DNA of 64,000 nucleotides from Patescibacteria group bacterium (GCA_041661425.1 JBAZUI010000002.1:38-64037); one strand, 5' to 3'; counted from the stretch's first letter, positions 7,148 to 51,173 are shown. The notes: generated from the sequence alone by a model not told the origin. A program made the numbers and translations.

Positions 7148-7211
7148 TCGACCCGTTCCATGTGGAGTCACCTAGTCTCTCCTGGAACCTGAGTGTCGTA
7201 AAATACTCATT

Positions 7212-8390
7212 TTGACTCTCCCATTAGTGTATCGAAAAAAAACGCATGTGTCCAGTAAACAAAAAAATATGATACAATCAGCCTTACTTATGGAAACGTA
7301 TATCATACTTTTACTCTGCGCCATTCTTGGACTTTGTATTTGGCTCATATTTGCACGGAACAATAAAAATGACTCGCAAAACATCCTCATTGAGATGAAA
7401 CGCATGCAGGACGAGATGAACCGGATGACGTTCGAGCAGAGGCAGGAGTTGCAGACTCGTCTTGATCGTGTAAACGACTCTGTCAATCGAGGAATGACAT
7501 CATCGCACGATGCCATTCAAAAGCAATTCAGTGAAACAACAAAAGTCATTCAGGACATCACACAGAAAATGACAGAAATCAACTCTACAAATAAACAGGT
7601 TCTCGATTTTTCAAGCCAGTTGCAAAATCTACAGGAAATTTTTAAAAGTCCAAAACAACGTGGGGTGGTTGGTGAATATTTTCTCGAGACCCTATTATCG
7701 AATGTCCTGCCAAAGGATAGCTTTAGCATGCAGTATCCATTGGGAGTCGATGAAAAAACAAATCAAAAGCTCATTGCTGATGCTGTTATTTTTATCCGAG
7801 GCCTTATTATTCCAATCGACTCGAAATTCTCGCTTGAGAATTACAATCGCATGATGGGGGAGACAGATGCAATCCAAAAGGAAAAAAACGAAAAGCTCTT
7901 TAAAGCGGACGTAAAAAATCGAATTGACGAAACAGCAAAATACATTCAAGTTCAAAAAAATACCATGAATTTTGCCTTCATGTTCATTCCAGCAGAAGGC
8001 GTCTACTATAATCTCATGAATGCAGAGGTTGGTTCTGGAGTGAATAGTCGAAATCTCGTTGAATACGCATTTCAACAGCATGTCATGATCGTCTCTCCAA
8101 CCTCGTTTTATGCCTATTTGCAAACGGTTTTGCTTGGATTGCGGGAATTGCAACTTGAAAAATCAACACAGGAGATTCTCCGCCGGGTGAGTGAATTTAA
8201 AAAACACATGCAAGCATATGCCGATGTCCACGATCGGCTTGGCAGAAATCTTGATACCGTTGTCAATCAATACAATCAATCCAATAAAGAGCTTGGAAAG
8301 CTCAGTCGTGACGTTGTGAAAATTTCGGATGGTAACCTTGATGAGATTATTGAAATCGATGACGTGACGAAAACAATTTCCGATACGTAA
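7212..8390 (+). CDS. rmuC: DNA recombination protein RmuC
   Basis: N-terminal TM, coiled coil and RmuC motifs (VVGEYFLETLL..., IPIDSKFSLENY, MIVSPTSFYAYL). A TGaTACAAT extended -10 at about 7262-7272 suggests the real start is Met at 7269 or 7290. Confidence 0.85.
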   Translation: MTLPLVYRKKTHVSSKQKNMIQSALLMETYIILLLCAILGLCIWLIFARNNKNDSQNILIEMKRMQDEMNRMTFEQRQELQTRLDRVNDSVNRGMTSSHDAIQKQFSETTKVIQDITQKMTEINSTNKQVLDFSSQLQNLQEIFKSPKQRGVVGEYFLETLLSNVLPKDSFSMQYPLGVDEKTNQKLIADAVIFIRGLIIPIDSKFSLENYNRMMGETDAIQKEKNEKLFKADVKNRIDETAKYIQVQKNTMNFAFMFIPAEGVYYNLMNAEVGSGVNSRNLVEYAFQQHVMIVSPTSFYAYLQTVLLGLRELQLEKSTQEILRRVSEFKKHMQAYADVHDRLGRNLDTVVNQYNQSNKELGKLSRDVVKISDGNLDEIIEIDDVTKTISDT

Positions 8391-16542: not shown

Positions 16543-16618
16543 TGGGGCGGCTAAAGGGAATCGAACCCTTATAGCTGGGACCACAACCCAGTGCACTAAC
16601 CATTATGCTATAGCCGCC
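16543..16618 (-). tRNA. tRNA-His (anticodon GTG) with encoded G-1
   Basis: Cloverleaf on the revcomp; extra 5' G pairing with C73; anticodon loop TTGTGGT; CCA encoded. Confidence 0.85.
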
Positions 16619-16669: not shown

Positions 16670-16746
16670 TGGTGCACCCGGCAGGACTTGAACCTGCAAC
16701 CTTGAGGTTAGAACCCTCCTGCTCTATCCAGTTGAGCTACGGGTGC
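16670..16746 (-). tRNA. tRNA-Arg (anticodon TCT)
   Basis: The revcomp GCACCCG...CGGGTGCACCA folds as a cloverleaf; anticodon loop GTTCTAA; G27-A43 mismatch, as in the other Arg tRNA. Confidence 0.8.
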
Positions 16747-16792: not shown

Positions 16793-17716
16793 TCAAGCCC
16801 CCTTCTTATCGTGAAATGTTTTGTGGACCCGGCGGAGTTCTTTATCAGTAATATGAGTATAAACCTGGGTCGTTGTGATGGATTCGTGACCTAGGAGTGC
16901 CTGAACCGATCGCAGGTCTGCTCCATTGCGCAATAAATCCGTGGCAAAGGTGTGGCGCAACACATGGGGAGTAATGCGCTTTGTAATCCCGGATTCCTTT
17001 GCATATCGATCAATGATACGTTGAATTGAACGAGGCGTAAGTGATTCGACAGCCCCACGGGAGCGTTTTGCCGGGTCATGACCAACAAAAATAAACGGTG
17101 ATGAGTCTTTCCGAGTCGAGAGATAGTCTCGAATGGCATTTCGAGCCTCAGGAGAAAGAAAAACAACACGATGTTTGCTTCCCTTACCTTTGATTGTGAA
17201 TTCCTCACGCTTCAAATTGATATTTTCCCTTTTTAGCGAGGCGAGCTCGGAAACTCGAAGACCCGCAGAAAAAAGCGTCTCGATAATGGCCAAATCACGC
17301 AAGCCAATCAATCCGCCTGTTGCTTTTGGTGCGTTCCTTAAAAGGTTCAATTCCTCGGGCTCCAAGAAGGCGATGGCACGCGTTCCTTGCTTTGCGAGTT
17401 CGATTTTACTTGCAGAAATCACGCGGATATCTTGTTTTGCGAGATATTTGAGGAATGCTCGAAGAGCAATTAAGTGATAATTCTGTGTGCTTTTCTTGAG
17501 ATTTGATCCATCGCGCCCATCAATTGATCGATTGAGATAGAGGCGATATTCATGGATCATTTCCGAGGTGATTTTTGAGGGATTTGGGAATTTGGCCCAT
17601 TCGGCAAATCGATGGAGATAAAAGGCGTAATTATTGATGGTTCGTGCTGATCGTCCACGCTCAACCTCAAGATATTCAAGAAATTTTTTAATAAGACTTT
17701 CAATCCGACTTGCCAT
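16793..17716 (-). CDS. Site-specific tyrosine recombinase, XerC/XerD family
   Basis: Catalytic R..HxxR..Y motifs (GLRVSEL, HVLRHTFAT, LGHESITTTQVYTH). Confidence 0.85.
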   Translation of the reverse strand: MASRIESLIKKFLEYLEVERGRSARTINNYAFYLHRFAEWAKFPNPSKITSEMIHEYRLYLNRSIDGRDGSNLKKSTQNYHLIALRAFLKYLAKQDIRVISASKIELAKQGTRAIAFLEPEELNLLRNAPKATGGLIGLRDLAIIETLFSAGLRVSELASLKRENINLKREEFTIKGKGSKHRVVFLSPEARNAIRDYLSTRKDSSPFIFVGHDPAKRSRGAVESLTPRSIQRIIDRYAKESGITKRITPHVLRHTFATDLLRNGADLRSVQALLGHESITTTQVYTHITDKELRRVHKTFHDKKGA

Positions 17717-17760
17717 ATTCGAATATTATACGACACAAAGGCTGAAATGAGAATGAATTC

Positions 17761-17790
17761 TTGACAAATAGCCAAAAAACATGCTAATTT
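17761..17790 (+). promoter_or_regulatory. Sigma70-like promoter (TTGACA-18-TGcTAATTT) of paralog 1. Identical copies sit at 18346-18375 and 18916-18945; the rpsO version (TTGACA-17-TAGACT) is at 19504-19532.
   Basis: Hexamers and spacing read directly; conserved in every unit. Confidence 0.6.
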
Positions 17791-17795
17791 CACCC

Positions 17796-17829
17796 GTCGT
17801 AGAAATCCTCATAACGAGGAAAAACGACA
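17796..17829 (+). promoter_or_regulatory. Nested 5'UTR stem-loop (GTCGT..[TCCTC-loop-GAGGA]..ACGAC) directly abutting the AGGAG Shine-Dalgarno; repeated before each paralog.
   Basis: Stems are identical in all three copies while the loop and linker differ in copy 3 (ataac>acgac, aaa>caata). Confidence 0.5.
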
Positions 17830-17839
17830 GGAGCTGACG

Positions 17840-18271
17840 ATGGCCAAGCAGACCCGCGAAGAGCGCCAGGAGCTGATGCGCAATTTCGATGACTTCGCCT
17901 ACTGGTTGCGAACGTCCATCCTTGCGGGAGCGGTCACGGCCGAAGACTTCGGTCGCATGATCGACGTACTCCTCCCCGTGACTAAGGCGAGATCGAGCCT
18001 CACCCTACGCATCGATGAGCTTGGGCTCTCGACGCGAACTCTGACCTGCCTGAAAAACAGGGGGGACATCGAGAACGTCGGGCAACTCCTCGAGATGACC
18101 GAAGGAGAGTTGCTGAAGACCAAGGGCTTCGGCAGGAAGTGCCTGAACGAGGTCAAGGAGATCCTCGCGGACATGGAGCTCACCTTCGGCATGATGGAGG
18201 CCAAGACCGAGGTTCCGGACTTCATGCGTGAGCGGCTCCTGTCCGAGGCCCGAAAGCTCAGCGAGCCCTAG
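17840..18271 (+). CDS. Small protein with an RNA polymerase alpha-subunit C-terminal-domain (alpha-CTD, HhH) fold, paralog 1
   Basis: LTLRIDELGLSTRTLTCLKNRGDIENVGQLLEMTEGELLKTKGFGRKCLNEVKEILADMELTFGM aligns with the RpoA CTD consensus (ELELSVRSANCLK..I..VGDLV..TE.ELLKTPNLGKKSL.EIK..LA..GLSLGM). Unique 55-aa N-terminal region. Confidence 0.7.
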   Translation: MAKQTREERQELMRNFDDFAYWLRTSILAGAVTAEDFGRMIDVLLPVTKARSSLTLRIDELGLSTRTLTCLKNRGDIENVGQLLEMTEGELLKTKGFGRKCLNEVKEILADMELTFGMMEAKTEVPDFMRERLLSEARKLSEP

Positions 18272-18295
18272 CCGAGCCTCGCACCCTTCTCATCG

Positions 18296-18321
18296 CGCCC
18301 CAGCGGAACTCCGCCGGGGCG
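18296..18321 (+). terminator. GC-rich hairpin (cgcccc-agcggaactccgcc-ggggcg) after paralog 1; equivalents follow paralogs 2 and 3.
   Basis: Imperfect 12-bp inverted repeat; copy 2 keeps pairing through a bulge and different inner bases (covariation); no U tract. Confidence 0.45.
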
Positions 18322-18424
18322 TGAATTCGTATAAACAACATTTTCTTGACAAATAGCCAAAAATCATGCTAATTTTACCCGTCGTAGAAATCCTCATAAC
18401 GAGGAAAAACGACAGGAGCAGACC

Positions 18425-18841
18425 ATGGCCGAGATGACACGCGAAGAGCGCCAGGACCTGGTACACAAGTTCGACGATTTTTACTACTGGATCCGGACGC
18501 TCATTCTCACGGGAATGATCGGGCGTGAGACCGTCGATGGAATGATCAATGGCATCATCTCGATCGAGGCGGAAGCAGGGTTCATGAAGCGTTTTGACGA
18601 GCTCGAGCTCTCAGTACGCTCTCAGAACCTTCTGGCGAACGCTGAAATCCAGTATGTCTACCAGATCGTCTTGATGACCGAGAGAGATCTGATCATGACC
18701 AAGCTCGGTCGGAAGGGCATGAAGGAGATCATGGGGGTCGTCGCAGACATGGGACTCTCCATCATGTTCGATTGGTCCATGCCACACTTCGTCCGTCAAC
18801 AGCTCTGCTACTATATCCGGAAGCTTGTGGGCAAGCCCTAG
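18425..18841 (+). CDS. Alpha-CTD-like small protein, paralog 2 (most divergent)
   Basis: Same architecture; FDELELSVRSQNLLANAEIQYVYQIVLMTERDLIMTKLGRKGMKEIMGVVADMGLSIM. Confidence 0.7.
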   Translation: MAEMTREERQDLVHKFDDFYYWIRTLILTGMIGRETVDGMINGIISIEAEAGFMKRFDELELSVRSQNLLANAEIQYVYQIVLMTERDLIMTKLGRKGMKEIMGVVADMGLSIMFDWSMPHFVRQQLCYYIRKLVGKP

Positions 18842-18996
18842 TCCGAGCGTCGCCCCCCCCTCAACGCGCCCCAGCGGACTCCCGCGGGGCGTGAATTTGT
18901 TTAAACAACATTTTCTTGACAAATAGCCAAAAATCATGCTAATTTCACCCGTCGTAGAAATCCTCACGACGAGGACAATAACGACAGGAGCAGACC

Positions 18997-19428
18997 ATGA
19001 CCAAGCCGACCCGTGAAGAGTGTCAGGAGCTGGTGCGCAAGTTCGACGACTTCTCCCACTGGGTCCGTGCGCTCATCCTCGCGGGAGCGGTCACGAACGA
19101 AGACGTCGATCGCATGGTTGATGACTTCATGACGAGCACGCTCGACCCGCGCCTCACCATGCCCATTAGCGAGCTCAAGCTCTCCACCAAGAACCTGGTT
19201 AGCTTGCGGGACCGGAGGCGGGACATCCAGAACGTCGGACAGCTCATCACGAAGAGCGAAGAAGAACTCCTCATGTCCCGGAACTTCGGCCACACGGGTC
19301 AGAAGGAGGTCAAGGAGGTCCTCGCGGACATGGGGCTCTCGCTCGGCATGATGGACGTGGAGGTCGAGGTTCCAGGCTTCATCCGCGAGCGGATCCTGTC
19401 CGAGGCCCGAAAGCTCAGCGAGCCCTAG
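18997..19428 (+). CDS. Alpha-CTD-like small protein, paralog 3
   Basis: ISELKLSTKNLVSLRDRRRDIQNVGQLITKSEEELLMSRNFGHTGQKEVKEVLADMGLSLGMM; C-terminal tail RERILSEARKLSEP is almost identical to paralog 1. Confidence 0.7.
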   Translation: MTKPTREECQELVRKFDDFSHWVRALILAGAVTNEDVDRMVDDFMTSTLDPRLTMPISELKLSTKNLVSLRDRRRDIQNVGQLITKSEEELLMSRNFGHTGQKEVKEVLADMGLSLGMMDVEVEVPGFIRERILSEARKLSEP

Positions 19429-19588
19429 CCGAGCCTCGCACCCCTCTCATCGCGCCCCAGCGGAACTCCGCCGGGGCGTGAATTCGTATAAACAACATTT
19501 TCTTGACAAAATCCACATTTTGCCCTAGACTTTCCCCGTACGCATTAATCCTTATTGCTCTGGATCATGGCTTCTCGCTTGAGCGGCG

Positions 19589-19897
19589 ATGGCTAAGATC
19601 CACGAGACGAAATACCCATTTACTATGCTCAGCAAACAGCAAAAGCAAAATATCATCGATAAGTTCAAAGTCCACGATACCGATACCGGTTCTCCACAGG
19701 TCCAAATCGCTATTTTGACCGCAGAAATCAAGGATCTTACAAAACATCTTCGCATGCACAAGAAGGACTTCAGTTCACGACGTGGTCTTGTAAAAAAAGT
19801 CGTTGAACGACGTCGTTTACTCAAATACTTGGAACGGGAAGATAAAAAGGAACACGATACACTCGTTTCCGCGCTCGAACTTCGCATTACTACTTAA
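19589..19897 (+). CDS. rpsO: 30S ribosomal protein S15
   Basis: DTGSPQVQIAILTAEIKDLTKHLRMHKKDFSSRRGL matches uS15. Alignment with E. coli suggests the true start is Met at 19625 (MLSKQQ...). Confidence 0.85.
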   Translation: MAKIHETKYPFTMLSKQQKQNIIDKFKVHDTDTGSPQVQIAILTAEIKDLTKHLRMHKKDFSSRRGLVKKVVERRRLLKYLEREDKKEHDTLVSALELRITT

Positions 19898-30397: not shown

Positions 30398-30539
30398 TCA
30401 ATCATAAAACCGCTGACGACATTCGCCGGCGGTTTTTGTTATTGAATGGTTGACAAATCAGTAATTTTATCGTTAAATTTATTCGTCACGCGACCATCCG
30501 TGCATAAAGCTCGGATGCAACCGTTATGGGAGATTCACC

Positions 30540-30974
30540 ATGGATTTCTTTCACCTCTTCTTCTACTTGCTTGTCGGTGCTTTCACTGCGTCCTTGATTA
30601 GCCTTATCCAGCGCATCGGAAAGCAGAAAAAGATGGAATGCAAACTCCGTGACATGCAAAGGATGGCCGACGTCCTTGAGGCCAAAGTGTGGGACATGAA
30701 GCACAAATGCCATGACGTCGAGAGGATTGCTGACGACCTCGGCACGGTGATCGTGAACGAGATCAAGGGGCGCAAACCGCACATTGAGCGGACTCCCTTC
30801 AAAGGTGAGGATGGAACGGACAAGGAGTGCTTCCTTGTGTGGAACGGCGCCATCCTGACCGACGGGGAAGAAATCAGAGAAAGCGATCACGGACGAGCCT
30901 ACGAGGTCGTCGCGGTGACCCTCGACAAGGACGGGCTCTGTACCAGGGCCAAGGTCATCCCGCCCCGGTTCTGA
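30540..30974 (+). CDS. GC-rich small hypothetical protein (N-terminal TM plus coiled coil), likely horizontally acquired
   Basis: Local GC about 57% against about 42% in the flanks; promoter TTGACA-17-TTAAAT at 30453-30481; SD-ATG context gggagattcaccATG; terminator gccgacc..ggtcggc plus T run at 31000-31030. The opposite-strand ORF 30486..31067 looks antisense. Confidence 0.5.
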   Translation: MDFFHLFFYLLVGAFTASLISLIQRIGKQKKMECKLRDMQRMADVLEAKVWDMKHKCHDVERIADDLGTVIVNEIKGRKPHIERTPFKGEDGTDKECFLVWNGAILTDGEEIRESDHGRAYEVVAVTLDKDGLCTRAKVIPPRF

Positions 30975-31100
30975 CCCTCTCAGCGCTTCCTTCTTCTCCT
31001 GCCGACCCCTCGTGGTCGGCGTTTGGCTTTTAAATGGTTTTCTATACAAAACCGTTGACAGCATCATTATTTTCGCTTAGACTTTGCACAAAACTAACCT

Positions 31101-46914: not shown

Positions 46915-46963
46915 TCTCTAAGAACGACAAAACCCCTGATCTCAAAGCGAGATTCCAGGGGTT

Positions 46964-46997
46964 GAGCGCCGAGCGAGTTCGCTCGGCGTTATTTCTT
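46964..46997. terminator. Bidirectional terminator cgccgagcga-gt-tcgctcggcg plus T run, shared by PGI/PMI (+) and the GC-rich gene (-)
   Basis: 10-bp GC inverted repeat; marks the left boundary of the GC-rich island. Confidence 0.6.
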
Positions 46998-48731
46998 GTG
47001 GCGGCACGGAAGCTTTGTGCAGCCGGCGTAGGGGTCGTCCTCCGGGAGCGTGCCCTCCTCCTCGGCGCGTTCGTACGAGTAGTCCTCGTACGCTGGGACG
47101 ATCGTATTGTCCCAGGTCCAGTGGACCGAGGCGCCAAAGACCGTGATGCCACCACCGCAGATGATGAAGGCAACGGCCACGGCAACTCCCATGGCGAAGA
47201 TTCGGACCACGCGCTTGCTCATTTTCTTGTCTTCCTCGAAGGTGTTCCGCCACCCGGTTCGGGAAATCAGATCATTGAGCATCGCGACGAAGCAAATCCC
47301 GATGCAGACGAGTCTCGTTGCGTACATCGCGAACGAGGCGTCCGCAAGGGCGGAGAAGAGGATCAGGAACGCGGCCGTGAGTCCAGCGGCCACGATCGAG
47401 ATGCTGGTCGCGGTTCGGTGGAACCAGCCCGTGTGGTGCTTCTCGGGCATATCGAGACGGAGCACCCGATCGACCACGACCTCGGGCACGGGGATCCCAA
47501 GAGCCCTCAGGCTCTTCCCGAATTTGGAGAGCATCCGGTCGAGGATCCCTGGCTCGTCCACCCGCTTTCCAGTCAGCAAGGTGGTGATGCCCCGGAGAAC
47601 ATGCCCAGGAATCGGGAACAGGAGCCGTCCCACGTACAGGGTGCTAAGTCCTGCCACGAGGAGGAGAGTCACCCATCCGGATTCGGGGGCATAGAAGCCG
47701 ATCAAGAGGCCCAGGAACCAGATGATGGCTCCCAAGCCACCCGCGCCGGCGGCGAGCGCGACGATGGCGGCGAGTACCATGATTGCCGCAATCATCAGCC
47801 CTGCGAGGATAGTGATGTTTTTGGGGCTGACGACCCATTTCACCCAGGCCTTGATGGCTGGCACATCGACCCAGATGTCCGCGAGGTCTCTGGCGCGGGC
47901 CTTGAGACTTGGGCTGTGGTGGGCCATCACCGGGAAGTACACTTCGCCCCCGTACTTCATGGGATCCTGAAGGATCATCGCGGGCGTAACGCCGGCATCG
48001 ATGAGGCCTCGAAGCGCCGGCTTGGCCCAGGCCGGGTTGTAATCCATGAAGTGGCGCATGGCCTCGTAGGATTGGCTTGCGATTCCATCGAGACCTTTCA
48101 TGTGACCGTCTGCTGCGGTCGAGGCGGGGCGGTCGAGGTAGATTGCGTCCCAGAGGGCCTGGAACAGGGCCGCGAAGAGTCGGCGCTCGTCATTCTCGAG
48201 CACCTCGAAGACGAGCACCGGAATTTCCTCGGGCTGATCGGCCGTGCCCCTGAGGAATCCTTTGCGAATGGCATCGAGGAGCATGGAGCGGCGCACCGTA
48301 GCGCCTTCTACGCTCTTGCCCTCGCGTCGGGCGTTCTCGAGGCTCTCCTGGATTCCGTACCCCAGGTTCGTGAGTACGGTGTCAAGAATCCCGGCCGCCA
48401 GTCGGTTGTGGCGGCGAACCTTCTGGTCCACCACCTTTCCGAGGACGTTGAAGACCCATCCATAGGCACCGGGAGGCACCACAGCCAGAAGATCAGCGAC
48501 GCCAAGGATCGACCCAACGAGCCGGACTCCTCCGGCAACGTCCTGTTGCTCGATCCAGCGCTCGAAGGCCTCGCCGACTGCTGTCTGGAAGACGCCCTCG
48601 GCCGCTGTTTTTTCAGCTGGATTTTTGGCCTTGGCAACGCCCTCGGCCTTGGTCTTGAAGGATTCGACAAAGCGATCGAAAAAGGACATGGTGTCTCCAA
48701 TTTTGTTTTCGGTTGTGAGGGAACGATTCAT
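46989..48731 (-). CDS. High-GC (GC3 about 85%) hypothetical protein: ~300-aa soluble N-terminal domain plus C-terminal multi-TM domain; likely horizontally acquired
   Basis: Coherent TM helices and normal amino-acid composition on the minus strand, whereas the plus-strand ORF 46962..48971 is an R/G/E/D-rich antisense artefact. Probable start is Met14 (48692), preceded by GGAG. Confidence 0.6.
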   Translation of the reverse strand: MNRSLTTENKIGDTMSFFDRFVESFKTKAEGVAKAKNPAEKTAAEGVFQTAVGEAFERWIEQQDVAGGVRLVGSILGVADLLAVVPPGAYGWVFNVLGKVVDQKVRRHNRLAAGILDTVLTNLGYGIQESLENARREGKSVEGATVRRSMLLDAIRKGFLRGTADQPEEIPVLVFEVLENDERRLFAALFQALWDAIYLDRPASTAADGHMKGLDGIASQSYEAMRHFMDYNPAWAKPALRGLIDAGVTPAMILQDPMKYGGEVYFPVMAHHSPSLKARARDLADIWVDVPAIKAWVKWVVSPKNITILAGLMIAAIMVLAAIVALAAGAGGLGAIIWFLGLLIGFYAPESGWVTLLLVAGLSTLYVGRLLFPIPGHVLRGITTLLTGKRVDEPGILDRMLSKFGKSLRALGIPVPEVVVDRVLRLDMPEKHHTGWFHRTATSISIVAAGLTAAFLILFSALADASFAMYATRLVCIGICFVAMLNDLISRTGWRNTFEEDKKMSKRVVRIFAMGVAVAVAFIICGGGITVFGASVHWTWDNTIVPAYEDYSYERAEEEGTLPEDDPYAGCTKLPCRHKK

Positions 48732-49080
48732 TCGGTTTTGAATCGAAATGAACCCCTATTTTTAGCAAAAAAATGGGGTTTTGTCAATGATTGCCACAGG
48801 GAGCTCCACCCCCTGACCCCGGCCTGCTTTTCTTGTGTAGGGGCGACCGGCCGCCTGCCTGCCGGTAGGCAGGGTCGCCCCTACATGCCTGTTTTTCCGG
48901 CGGGCCGTGTTTGCTTTATAAACGTACGGGCGGGTCTGCGACCCGCCCCATACAGAATTGAATCGCCGTAGGGACGTAGCCTGCTACGTCCATTGATTAG
49001 AGACGGTCTGCATTGACGAAAGCTCATTTTTTTGCTACGCTCTTGTGTTCCGGTTTTCCACCGGATAAGGGAGATTTACC
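48732..49080. promoter_or_regulatory. Divergent promoter region of the GC island with three GC-rich palindromes (48837-48884, 48928-48948, 48972-48991) and two similar promoters (TTGACA-17-TAAAAT on minus; TTGACG-17-TACGCT on plus, both with cATTTTTTTGCTA)
   Basis: Inverted repeats GTAGGGGCGACC..GGTCGCCCCTAC, GGGCGGGTC-tgc-GACCCGCCC and GGACGTAGC..GCTACGTCC read directly. Confidence 0.5.
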
Positions 49081-49917
49081 ATGTTCCAGACGCTTTTCGT
49101 GGTTCTTTTTATCCTGTTCTCTTCCGTGGCCGAGGCCGCCTGCCTCGCCTGGGGAGCGGGAACGGTGCTCGGGTTCGAGGCTGCGGTCTGCACCCACGAA
49201 TACGTGGGTGCTTACTGCGCCGAGACCCACCGGGTGGTGGTGCGCCTGCCGAGCGGGCGTGTGGCCGAAAAAATGGCCTGCGTTCGCACGGTCTCGTATG
49301 TGAGCCATGCCTACGTTCACACCTATGCACCGCGACCCGTGTACCACCCCCCGGTGCACTATGTGGCCCCGAGGCCTTACTATCAGCCTCGGCCCGCATA
49401 TCATCCGCCGCAGGTCGTCTATACCACTCGGCCGCACTGGGTGCCAACGAGGAGCATCCCGCAGGCGCCGATGGTGTCGGTGACGCTTCGCGAGGAGCGT
49501 CGAGTGGCCTCACCGCCCGCGCCGCTCGCGGGTGTGAACCTTGGGGGGCCGACCACGCTTGCACAGGCGCGGGTAGTGCGTGAGCAACGCGCAAGCGAGG
49601 CAGTTGCTTCGGCTTCATCCCCGCAGCAAACGCTCGTGGTGATGGCGGCCGCCCCGAGTGCGAGCGCGGCCGATCTTGAATCGGCGCGTCGCGAGAGCGC
49701 CTCAGCTCAGGCCGAAGTGGCACGGCTCCGCGCCGAGCTCGAGAGACTCAAGCTCGAGCGCGATCAGGCGCTCCGAAACCTCGAGGCGCTCCGCGCCGAG
49801 AACACAACGCTCGTCGACCAGAGCCGAGAGATCCTCGCTCAGCGCGCCGAGTACCTGGCGCAGGCCAAGCTCCGCGCCGAGAGGATTGAGGAGCTCGAGC
49901 GGCGGCTCGAGAACTAG
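49081..49917 (+). CDS. High-GC secreted protein: signal peptide, Cys-containing N-terminal region, Pro/Tyr/His-rich repeats (YHPP, PRPYYQPRPAYHPP), C-terminal ~90-aa coiled coil
   Basis: SD GGGAGA-7-ATG; third-codon-position GC very high; followed by a 22-bp perfect palindrome gggcggacccgcgggtccgccc (49918-49941). Confidence 0.55.
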   Translation: MFQTLFVVLFILFSSVAEAACLAWGAGTVLGFEAAVCTHEYVGAYCAETHRVVVRLPSGRVAEKMACVRTVSYVSHAYVHTYAPRPVYHPPVHYVAPRPYYQPRPAYHPPQVVYTTRPHWVPTRSIPQAPMVSVTLREERRVASPPAPLAGVNLGGPTTLAQARVVREQRASEAVASASSPQQTLVVMAAAPSASAADLESARRESASAQAEVARLRAELERLKLERDQALRNLEALRAENTTLVDQSREILAQRAEYLAQAKLRAERIEELERRLEN

Positions 49918-49996
49918 GGCGGACCCGCGGGTCCGCCCATACGTCAAAATCAAAACCCCCAAAGCCAATCGTCTTGTGCTGAGGGGGTTTATGCTG

Positions 49997-50374
49997 TTAG
50001 GAAGCGTCAACGGATAGGCCGATTTGTGTCATCACAAAATTTGTTATCGCATAAGCTGCAAGAATGATGATAAGACCAATCACAGCGTTCATAAGGAGAG
50101 TTTGTGCTTTCTTTGTTTTTTCAGCCTCACCGCCTGCTGTCATCCAAAGGAATCCGGCATAAATCGTGAAAGCAAGGAAGACAATGCCAAGGAAGCTCAA
50201 GAGCGTATAGATGATTTGTCCAATGAATGATGGAAGGTCCATATTGGAGAGCCCGCTATTCCCTTGAACGTCACTTAGCCATCCGTCTCCCAATGGCGTT
50301 TGGGCGAATGTTGGCGTGACTCCGGCAAAAATCGGCAGAACCGTTGCAATGGACGTGGCAATGATTTTTTTCAT
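49997..50374 (-). CDS. TrbC/VirB2-like (T4SS-pilin-like) small membrane protein, paralog A
   Basis: Signal peptide; TM1 ...IYAGFLWMTAGG; loop EAEKTKKAQ; TM2 AVIGLIIILAAYAITNFV. Confidence 0.55.
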   Translation of the reverse strand: MKKIIATSIATVLPIFAGVTPTFAQTPLGDGWLSDVQGNSGLSNMDLPSFIGQIIYTLLSFLGIVFLAFTIYAGFLWMTAGGEAEKTKKAQTLLMNAVIGLIIILAAYAITNFVMTQIGLSVDAS

Positions 50375-50400: not shown

Positions 50401-50799
50401 TTATAGGTTGGTGGTTGTTACACCTCCATATTTTCCTGACACTAAGTCTATCACAAATGCCGCGATGGCATAAGACGCAAGAATGAGGATAAGCCCAATA
50501 ACAGCATTAATAAGAAAACTTTGCGCTTTTTCCACCTGTTCTTTTTTTCCACCGGCTGTCATCCAAAGGAACCCGGCATAAATATTAAATCCCAATAGAA
50601 TAATTCCCACGATTGAAAGAACGGAATAAATCAACAACGAAGTAATCGAAATGATATTTTGATTTTCCAGTTCGTTGCCGTAGATTTGTGTTCCAGCGGA
50701 TTCTAACTGATCGTCAAAAATATCTGCAAGTTGCGCTTGCGCCATTTGAGGAAGAAAACCGCAGGAAAGACCAAAAAGGAGAACGAGAAGGTATTTCAC
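50401..50799 (-). CDS. T4SS-pilin-like paralog B (the ORF track extends to 50937; probable GTG start 2 nt after the stop of paralog C)
   Basis: VKYLLVLLFGLSCGFLPQMAQA signal peptide; IYAGFLWMTAGGKKEQVEKAQ...AVIGLILILASYAIAAFV. Confidence 0.5.
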   Translation of the reverse strand: MKYLLVLLFGLSCGFLPQMAQAQLADIFDDQLESAGTQIYGNELENQNIISITSLLIYSVLSIVGIILLGFNIYAGFLWMTAGGKKEQVEKAQSFLINAVIGLILILASYAIAAFVIDLVSGKYGGVTTTNL

Positions 50800-50801
50800 A
50801 A

Positions 50802-51173
50802 TTAGGAGGTTAGCATGGTAAGGACAAACTGTGTGAGGGCGTACGCCGCAATAACAATGAGAAGCCCGATTACGGAATTCACAAGAATATCCTGTGCTTT
50901 TTTGACGTGCGTTTTTTCTCCCCCGGCTGTCATCCAAATGACACCAGCGTAAATAGTGAGGACCAGGAAAATAACGCCAAGAATGCCAAGAAGGGGAGAA
51001 ATAATGCGCGCGCCGACAAAGCTTCCGATGTCTTGCGTGGCATCGGAACTATCAAGAGAACCATAAATCACTTCACCGGTTTCTGTAAGTCCAGTACTGT
51101 CCGTACTGATTTGCGCAAAAGCAAAACCTGGAAAGAGCAAGAGAATCCCCGTGAAAACTATCAGTTTTCGCAT
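50802..51173 (-). CDS. T4SS-pilin-like paralog C (the ORF track extends to 51278; probable start MRKLIVF)
   Basis: IYAGVIWMTAGGEKTHVKKAQ...SVIGLLIVIAAYALTQFV. Confidence 0.5.
   Translation of the reverse strand: MRKLIVFTGILLLFPGFAFAQISTDSTGLTETGEVIYGSLDSSDATQDIGSFVGARIISPLLGILGVIFLVLTIYAGVIWMTAGGEKTHVKKAQDILVNSVIGLLIVIAAYALTQFVLTMLTS

Follow-up and report, generated by a model that had tools for sequence, protein, structure and literature searches.

Within a 64,000-nucleotide stretch of a Patescibacteria metagenome-assembled genome (MAG; GCA_041661425.1 JBAZUI010000002.1:38-64037), here called the window, three tandem genes between a Xer-type tyrosine recombinase gene (xer) and rpsO, the gene for ribosomal protein S15, encode small proteins (a1, a2 and a3) that carry the C-terminal domain of the RNA polymerase alpha subunit (alpha-CTD) without its N-terminal domain (alpha-NTD). 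We consider it an even proposition that a foreign gene for a free alpha-CTD landed between xer and rpsO, took over a copy of the rpsO promoter, tripled in place and now modulates transcription. In bacteria, UP elements and class I activators dock chiefly on the alpha-CTD, and a free alpha-CTD would offer a cell or a phage a simple means of reprogramming promoter use.

That a1, a2 and a3 are genuine proteins of the alpha-CTD fold without an alpha-NTD is a solid conclusion. The Pfam family PF03118 (RNA_pol_A_CTD) scored above its gathering score of 23.8 bits in all three (66.6, 43.6 and 42.4 bits, with E-values of 1.6e-18, 2.5e-11 and 5.6e-11 for a1, a2 and a3), which bears out the claim of an earlier sequence-only reading of this DNA, made by a model, that each protein carries such a helix-hairpin-helix segment. 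The proteins share 43-58% pairwise identity, and a profile of the three matched solved alpha-CTDs over positions ~49-118 only, with the best scores for Caulobacter (76.9 and 73.3 bits), followed by E. coli (58-62), Gram-positives (45-50) and Thermus (26). An AlphaFold2 model of a1 (mean pLDDT 71, and 75-90 across residues 51-110) has helices at 6-28, 34-44 and 127-141, with the alpha-CTD spanning 52-111, corresponding to a layout of an orphan helical N-terminus (~1-50), an alpha-CTD (~52-111) and a C-terminal helix (127-141). The structural check that the sequence-only reading had proposed thus came out in its favour: the compact helical fold with its two helix-hairpin-helix motifs superposes on solved alpha-CTDs, and Foldseek against the PDB gave a probability of 1.00, target-normalised template modelling (TM) scores of 0.8-0.94 and root-mean-square deviations of 0.6-3.3 Å for the alpha-CTDs of Caulobacter and E. 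coli. The best NCBIfam model for a1-a3 was the 338-position NF003513 and every cut-off for full RpoA was failed; the RpoA equivalog TIGR02027 scored 59.8 bits against a cut-off of 227.8, and its positions ~228-298 alone were matched. No alpha-NTD was detected by Pfam in a1-a3, which would therefore be unable to assemble into the polymerase core. Aligned with Azospirillum RpoA, a1 shows 45% identity over a stretch that opens with the alpha-CTD and stops no more than one residue short of the RpoA C-terminus.

The genes form a tandem array (Table 1) of three full direct-repeat units and the 11-nt start of a fourth. Direct-repeat analysis places the unit starts at 17758, 18343 and 18915, and the spacings of 585 and 572 nt agree with the three units of about 578 bp described earlier. 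The sequence TTCTTGACAAA bounds the array at both ends, at 17758 and at 19500-19510. Each unit comprises a promoter-like site, a hairpin in the 5′ untranslated region (5′UTR), an open reading frame (ORF) of 143, 138 or 143 codons and a GC-rich 3′ hairpin, so that the previously described layout of sigma70-like promoter, 5′UTR hairpin, ORF of about 140 amino acids and GC-rich hairpin is present in all three. The promoters, read by eye, consist of TTGACA, 18 nt and TAATTT, with TG one base upstream of the −10; a consensus scanner did not flag them because TAATTT matches TATAAT at only three of six positions. The 5′UTR hairpins fold at −14.5 to −15.6 kcal/mol and the 3′ hairpins at −25.4 to −27.3 kcal/mol (z −2.7 to −3.6 for both), and none of the latter is followed by a U tract. 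In each unit the 3′ arm of the 5′UTR hairpin overlaps the Shine-Dalgarno sequence AGGAG; in unit 1, where this sequence is at 17829-17833, the overlap is with its first bases. A stretch of 41 nt at the unit 1 hairpin is identical in unit 2, and the sequence of the 3′ hairpin of unit 1 recurs identically at 19451-19484. No copies of the unit motifs were found in the rest of the window or in shuffled controls, and the array hairpins had no Rfam match. Tandem Repeats Finder did not report the array because its maximum period of 500 nt is shorter than that of the array.

The coding DNA of the array is compositionally foreign, in line with the GC-rich donor that the sequence-only reading had envisaged. 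The GC content at third codon positions (GC3) is 0.76-0.87 in a1-a3 (Table 1) compared to 0.41-0.49 in 10 other genes of the window, and the total GC content of 0.54-0.61 in the array against 0.40-0.47 in its flanks confirms the local enrichment noted before. When changes among the copies were polarised by majority rule, 85 from GC to AT were counted against 40 from AT to GC, with the strongest excess in a2, a pattern consistent with a very GC-rich gene ameliorating within an AT-richer genome. Promoters and 5′UTRs are AT-rich and host-like, and GC richness returns in the 3′ flanks and their hairpins. GC-biased gene conversion as the source of the high GC3 was rejected by reasoning, because homogenisation is strongest in the flanks, which are AT-rich. 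Antisense ORFs of 108-118 amino acids also run through the array on the minus strand (17899-18225, 18611-18967 and 18964-19293); they result from the high GC3 on the sense strand and are not genes in their own right.

Divergence among the copies is considerable, with dS of 0.5-0.75. Over the whole gene dN/dS is about 0.6; by region it is 0.3-0.5 for codons 1-30, 0.46-0.73 across the alpha-CTD and 0.8-1.0 for linker and tail. All seven gap runs inside coding sequence are multiples of three, whereas all four internal runs outside it are of 1-2 nt, and the ORFs are therefore under coding constraint. The non-coding flanks are ~83-100% identical among the units (90-100% in promoter and 5′UTR), identity drops gradually from both unit ends to the centre, and the resulting picture is a mosaic in which units 1 and 2 are most alike at the 5′ end and units 1 and 3 across the final ~113 nt. 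The 3′ flanks of units 1 and 3, reported earlier as identical for more than 110 bp, are in fact ~98% identical over this distance (~80% to unit 2), and the longest exact repeat between units is 55 nt. Such a mosaic is the expected product of gene conversion between tandem copies, possibly together with selection on regulatory elements. As no exact repeat exceeds 55 nt, a collapsed-repeat assembly artefact, a danger which the sequence-only reading had itself raised, is unlikely.

The array is inserted at a site that can be compared among relatives, most of which are labelled Uhrbacteria. The comparison set comprised 80 related loci, and in the closest of these (L001), whose neighbour proteins are 81-86% identical, the gene order is exoIII, xer, rpsO, NYN, pnp. 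Both flanks of the array are collinear with L001, where the gap between xer and rpsO is 125 bp, and the 1.75-kb array is therefore a lineage-specific insertion. The divergent xer and the genes for tRNA-His and tRNA-Arg lie where the sequence-only reading had seen them; the functional association that it had suggested for them did not hold. In 49 of the 80 related loci xer divergently adjoins rpsO, and an alpha-CTD ORF was found by tblastn and hmmsearch in none of the 80, so that the search of relatives for an array accompanying the recombinase, which that reading had called for, came back empty. The tRNA genes are separated from the array by xer and do not mark the place of insertion. The recombinase passed the XerA-type model NF040815 (231.1 bits, cut-off 220) and failed both integron-integrase models (TIGR02249, 125.5 vs 265; NF011946, 75.7 vs 435), and it is a housekeeping Xer. 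No attC cores (GTTRRRY or RYYYAAC) were found on the array strand at 17700-19600, and no inverted repeats of at least 14 nt were detected. A dif-like repeated dyad was not found at the junctions either, an absence that is not provable as the dif sequence of this clade is not established. The conserved motif ATTATACGACACA preceding xer is present in a single copy and is not repeated at the unit junctions, and similarity between the pre-array region and the junctions is at chance level (reached in 393 of 3000 shuffles). The adjacency of the array to the recombinase and the tRNA genes is best read as coincidence.

The motif ATTATACGACACA has a distribution of its own. At 17725-17737 it overlaps the −10 of xer, exact 10-mers occur in 17 of the 54 loci with sequence upstream of xer, and in L026, L027 and L032 the orientation is opposite. 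A copy with two mismatches at 7192-7204 (minus strand) precedes an RmuC-family recombination gene (7212-8390) at a corresponding position, and the motif may be a shared operator of DNA-recombination genes.

The xer-rpsO site itself is variable: the gap measures between 125 and 3777 bp in relatives, and GC-rich DNA is found in it repeatedly. The gaps in L011 (701-4041) and L013 (2490-5561), loci with 45-50% GC, contain operon-like small orphan ORFs with GC3 of 0.72-0.84 and no Pfam hit; one family is common to both (130 and 143 amino acids), and L013 additionally has a 146-nt repeat (99% identical) and a hairpin that is present three times. The gap in L006 (1861-5637; CAZTKG010000004) holds at least seven tandem units of ~205-260 nt, each with a copy of an rpsO-type promoter, a hypervariable centre and a hairpin followed by a T-run terminator. 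An invariant 11-bp stem closes these units, 5′ UCGAUUUGCU pairing with 3′ AGCGAAAUCGA, and a conserved CCGCGCCCCGCGG hairpin displays compensatory changes from C-G to U-A. They had no Rfam match and no convincing ORF, and may be a family of structured RNAs new to Rfam or a miniature inverted-repeat transposable element (MITE)-like element.

The promoters of the units point to rpsO as their source. Only four sites in the window match the composite pattern TTGACA-N15-19-TAnnnT-N1-8-CCCGT, one in each of the three units and one at rpsO. After the shared TTCTTGACAAA, the unit leader TTTACCCGT-CGTAGAAATCCTCAT aligns in register with the rpsO leader TTTCCCCGTACGCATTAATCCTTAT, at a score that was reached by 35 of 2000 shuffles. 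The unit promoter also matches the rpsO promoters of relatives (L002, L006, L049 and L056) as well as the rpsO promoter of the window does, and the observed medians were reached by 5 and 6 of 200 conservative shuffles. These similarities suggest that the unit promoters are paralogues of the rpsO promoter of the clade, and we infer from them a capture of the promoter followed by amplification in place. One may envisage that foreign coding sequence with its GC-rich hairpin was initially placed behind a copy of the rpsO promoter and leader start, that a first duplication took place through the short TTCTTGACAAA homology, and that the number of copies then rose to three by unequal crossing-over between the 580-nt repeats. 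The coding parts would afterwards have diverged under weak purifying selection, while promoter, 5′UTR hairpin and 3′ hairpin would have been kept alike by gene conversion, selection or both. The rpsO leader (19556-19624) is conserved with L001 and other relatives in the form CATGG.TT.TCGCTTGAGCGGCG...CTAAGATCC and is probably the S15 autoregulatory structure. Comparison with the same relatives indicates that the true start of rpsO is probably the conserved position 19625 (MLSKQQKQ) and not the ORF start at 19589.

The residues that contact DNA and sigma differ among the paralogues. In the alpha-CTD of E. coli, R265, N268, C269, G296, K298 and S299 contact DNA and E261 contacts sigma. An alignment of a1-a3 with the alpha-CTDs of E. 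coli and Caulobacter gave, for a1, a2 and a3 respectively, R, R and K at position 265; T, N and V at 268; C, L and S at 269; G throughout at 296; K, K and T at 298; C, G and G at 299; and G, E and K at the sigma-contacting position 261. Judged from this alignment, the 265 determinant is largely retained in a1 (R265, G296 and K298) and a2 (R265, N268, G296 and K298) and largely lost in a3. Since the paralogues differ at these positions, their targets probably differ as well. We propose that a1-a3, if expressed from their predicted promoters, would act as helix-flanked alpha-CTD modules that bind A/T-rich UP-like DNA or partner proteins of the alpha-CTD, and that they would thereby modulate transcription, either in competition with the contacts made by the alpha-CTDs of the polymerase itself or as a supplement to them, each paralogue with a different target. 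The decoy mechanism suggested in the sequence-only reading is in this sense plausible.

The N-terminus had been called unique and 55 residues long; it is about 50 residues long and indeed has no detectable relative in profile searches. An exhaustive profile search of 1.84 billion representatives returned as full-length matches only the paralogues of the window itself, and the N-terminal alignment alone found nothing in a protein search. At E ≤ 0.001 the profile search gave 11,838 matches, a count that includes true RpoA. One protein, P0082, covers profile positions 7-119, yet it is 342 amino acids long with two alpha-CTDs and a sigma-region-4-like end. With a1 as the query, a word-index protein search recovered only a1 itself, a lookup of contigs encoding known proteins had no record, and its alpha-CTD alone had no match among viral contigs in the related-locus search. 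Candidate relationships were also rejected. That the N-terminus is a diverged end of the RpoA NTD with linker is unsupported, as BLAST extends into it at ~20% identity and HMMER and a PDB profile search do not; kinship with the N-termini of a phage group (L123, L128 and L160) was dismissed, as hhalign aligns the alpha-CTD only; and matches in phage and plasmid records proved not to be standalone genes; they were true rpoA on chromids, contamination by host DNA or paralogues of full-length rpoA (Streptomyces, Yoonia).

Standalone alpha-CTD proteins as such are found in viruses. A degenerate-pattern scan of IMG/VR, from which 80 loci were fetched (L085-L164), yielded small standalone alpha-CTD proteins of 84-273 amino acids in 78 of them, and neighbouring genes for terminase, Erf-like annealing proteins and replication initiators confirm that these contigs are viral. 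In L087 (2938-4237), L092 (3902-5241) and L122 (3758-4878) the alpha-CTD gene lies in the early region and adjoins, or overlaps at start and stop, a gene for an Erf-like single-strand annealing protein. A comparison of 10 phage alpha-CTD proteins to PHROGs was without a hit, and no study of the function of standalone alpha-CTD proteins emerged from literature searches.

Several observations weigh against a captured alpha-CTD gene that modulates transcription. The array is known from a single metagenome-assembled contig; a search with the full alignment found no related locus in genomes, metagenomes or viral contigs, so that it has been seen once; and the exact 27-nt promoter and leader pattern had no match in metagenome contigs. 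The N-terminal helices were modelled at pLDDT 58-68 only, and a3 is without the equivalents of R265, N268 and K298. The dN/dS of about 0.6, and of 0.8-1.0 in linker and tail, is close to relaxed constraint, and flanks as similar as ~83-100% next to a coding dS of 0.5-0.75 also allow the reading that the units were acquired separately, three times, at a recombination site. Finally, the standalone alpha-CTD gene that abuts an Erf-type annealing-protein gene in three phage contigs hints that such proteins serve DNA metabolism and not transcription. This last point leads to an account in which a1-a3 are generic helix-hairpin-helix DNA-binding proteins of phage origin, serving recombination, replication or nucleoid organisation and unrelated to RNA polymerase. 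It is favoured by the small standalone forms, often a short N-terminus followed by an alpha-CTD, in all 78 viral loci with an alpha-CTD ORF, by the direct Erf neighbours in L087, L092 and L122, and by the proteins with 2-12 alpha-CTD repeats that dominate the exhaustive search, which fit a reusable DNA-binding module. The Erf neighbour is, however, seen in only 4 of the 78 viral loci, there are no phage genes around the array, PHROGs had no hit for a1-a3, and their alpha-CTD and tail are nearest to true RpoA to within one residue of its C-terminus; we hold this account to be unlikely. The same foreign, proteobacterium-like gene could also have been recruited into conflict, where the proteins would absorb phage factors that target the host alpha-CTD, or be delivered as mimics by the presumed episymbiont into a GC-rich host, and an arms race would explain why the paralogues diversified. 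Tandem paralogues with raised dN/dS and changed contact residues are what such a conflict might leave, and the window contains type IV secretion pilin genes and a second GC-rich island. Nevertheless, dN/dS never exceeds 1, no N-terminal signal peptide was evident when the sequences were read by eye without a predictor, no defence genes were seen nearby, and the sole match in the defence library PADLOC was weak (18.7 bits, to the alpha-CTD-like segment of PglW), which leaves conflict decoys improbable.

The position beside xer calls for another comparison, with a recombinase-dependent cassette array of integron or Xer/dif type, in which units were captured singly and their flanks are recombination sites. 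The dif sites of single-recombinase Xer systems adjoin xer, the xer-rpsO gap varies over more than three kilobases among relatives and holds GC3-rich orphan ORFs in L011 and L013, and the seven or more units of L006 have, like the units of the window, conserved ends and variable centres. We nevertheless find such an array very unlikely, given that the recombinase fails the integron-integrase models, that neither attC cores nor long inverted repeats were detected, that ATTATACGACACA is confined to its place upstream of xer with junction similarity at chance, and that the flanks are promoter copies and not recognisable recombination sites. A related idea is that the xer-rpsO site is a hot spot of capture and amplification in Uhrbacteria-like Patescibacteria, where foreign genes or RNAs come under copies of the rpsO promoter, perhaps with involvement of Xer, and where the paralogues diversify in conflict with alpha-CTD-targeting phages or with the transcription machinery of a GC-rich host. 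The recurrent gap contents of L006, L011 and L013 keep this idea alive at low probability; no recombination site that would support it was found upstream of xer or at the unit junctions. The least probable of these accounts, in our estimate, is that the array is a remnant or an artefact, be it decaying duplicates of a captured 3′ fragment of rpoA or a misassembled chimera. Although the dN/dS of ~0.6 and the single source contig would fit, and GC-rich DNA easily yields long ORFs, as the antisense ORFs illustrate, the coding indels are all in frame and the non-coding ones are not, the fold is retained with Pfam significance in all three proteins, and promoter, Shine-Dalgarno sequence and hairpins are preserved. 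Both flanks are, moreover, collinear with L001 and the repeats are shorter than a typical read.

Table 1. Coordinates of the array, its units and the neighbouring genes, counted from the first nucleotide of the window.
Feature	Position	Strand	Evidence and remarks
Whole tandem array	17758-19510	+	Direct-repeat families and unit alignment; not present in the closest relative, L001
Unit 1 promoter	17761-17790	+	−35 TTGACA 17761-17766, 18-nt spacer, TG-extended −10 TAATTT 17785-17790; resembles rpsO promoters of relatives
Unit 1 5′UTR two-tier hairpin	17793-17831	+	−15.6 kcal/mol, z −2.71
a1, 143-aa protein	17840-18271	+	Pfam 66.6 bits, AlphaFold2, Foldseek; GC3 0.84
Unit 1 3′ GC-rich hairpin	18293-18324	+	−27.3 kcal/mol, z −3.61; no U tract after
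Unit 2 promoter	18346-18375	+	
Unit 2 5′UTR hairpin	18378-18416	+	−14.5 kcal/mol, z −3.13
a2, 138-aa paralogue	18425-18841	+	Most diverged, lowest GC3 (0.76)
Unit 2 3′ hairpin	18865-18893	+	−25.4 kcal/mol; stem conserved, changes confined to loop
Unit 3 promoter	18916-18945	+	
Unit 3 5′UTR hairpin	18948-18988	+	−15.2 kcal/mol, z −3.59; differs from units 1 and 2 in loops and bulges only
a3, 143-aa paralogue	18997-19428	+	R265K, N268V and K298T equivalents; GC3 0.87
Unit 3 3′ hairpin	19450-19481	+	−27.3 kcal/mol, z −3.60
rpsO promoter	19503-19531	+	TTGACA, 17 nt, TAGACT; −35 is the last piece of the repeat; putative paralogue of the unit promoters
rpsO (ribosomal protein S15)	19625-19897	+	Downstream neighbour; probable start; TIGR00952 109.9 bits
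Xer-type tyrosine recombinase	16793-17716	−	Divergent neighbour, outside the array; NF040815 231 bits
tRNA-His	16543-16617		
tRNA-Arg	16670-16746		

Elsewhere in the window, a second GC-rich island at 46930-49950 (GC 0.60-0.70) contains an ORF of 580 amino acids with the look of a multi-pass membrane protein (46989-48731, minus strand) and one of 278 amino acids with a coiled-coil look (49081-49917, plus strand), both with GC3 of 0.77 and no Pfam hit. Directly adjoining the island are genes for two type IV secretion pilins (49997-50374 and 50401-50937, minus strand). A further GC peak of 0.57 at 30486-31067 coincides with overlapping ORFs of 193 (minus strand) and 144 amino acids (plus strand, GC3 0.75) without a Pfam hit.

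Standalone alpha-CTD proteins are widespread and, as far as the literature searches show, unstudied, and this locus, though a singleton, is a tidy entry point to them. It offers a natural example of three paralogues that differ at DNA-contact residues, behind predicted promoters that are strong and well defined, in a reduced genome. It would also document how a foreign gene came under what appears to be a captured ribosomal-protein promoter and was amplified, at a site that is variable among relatives.

The nearest known relative of a1-a3 in fold and family is the C-terminal domain of alphaproteobacterial RpoA (Caulobacter, PDB 9zum and 7ye1; Azospirillum), with 45-46% identity, a C-terminal tail that is common to within one residue and helix-hairpin-helix DNA-contact residues that are largely retained in a1 and a2. 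Unlike RpoA, a1-a3 have no alpha-NTD, which means neither alpha dimerisation nor beta/beta′ assembly, and possess an orphan helical N-terminus of 50 residues instead; their genes are three diverging copies with predicted promoters of their own, between xer and rpsO and outside the rpsM-rpsK-rpoA-rplQ operon. The standalone alpha-CTDs of phages, such as the 'RNA polymerase, alpha subunit, C-terminal' entries of BFVD (uncultured Caudovirales, 128-135 amino acids) and a protein of 149 amino acids in Mycobacterium phage Mithril, belong to the same size class and often share the layout of a short helical N-terminus, one alpha-CTD and no alpha-NTD. Their N-termini are, however, not detectably homologous to those of a1-a3, as the hhalign coverage of the alpha-CTD alone illustrates, and the phage genes are single, whereas the array is tandem and lies in a cellular chromosome with no phage genes nearby. 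Metagenomic multi-repeat proteins with 2-12 alpha-CTDs, the top matches of the exhaustive search, likewise reuse the alpha-CTD outside RpoA, but as repeats within one polypeptide and not as three one-domain genes.

In its proposed outcome, less UP-element-dependent transcription, the array may be compared to Alt and ModA of phage T4, which ADP-ribosylate alpha R265, and to gp67 of phage G1 (in part after PMC3694059). These act by modification or by sigma-bound blocking, whereas competition by free alpha-CTDs is proposed here, and there is no sequence relation. The likeness to integrons, a tyrosine recombinase divergent from an array of short units with conserved ends, does not extend to IntI-specific features or attC cores, and the recombinase is conserved in relatives that have no array. 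Integron cassettes are generally promoterless and expressed from Pc, whereas each unit of the array has a −35 and a −10 of its own. The statement of the sequence-only reading that this is not a recognised named system thus stands as far as no named system covers the arrangement, but the standalone class in itself is not without precedent, as the name 'alpha C-terminal domain-containing protein' that NCBI gives to these proteins, recorded there as MFA6130781-84, and the 78 viral loci testify. What is new here is the orphan N-terminal module, the tandem triplication, the presumed capture of a ribosomal-protein promoter and the setting in a candidate phylum.

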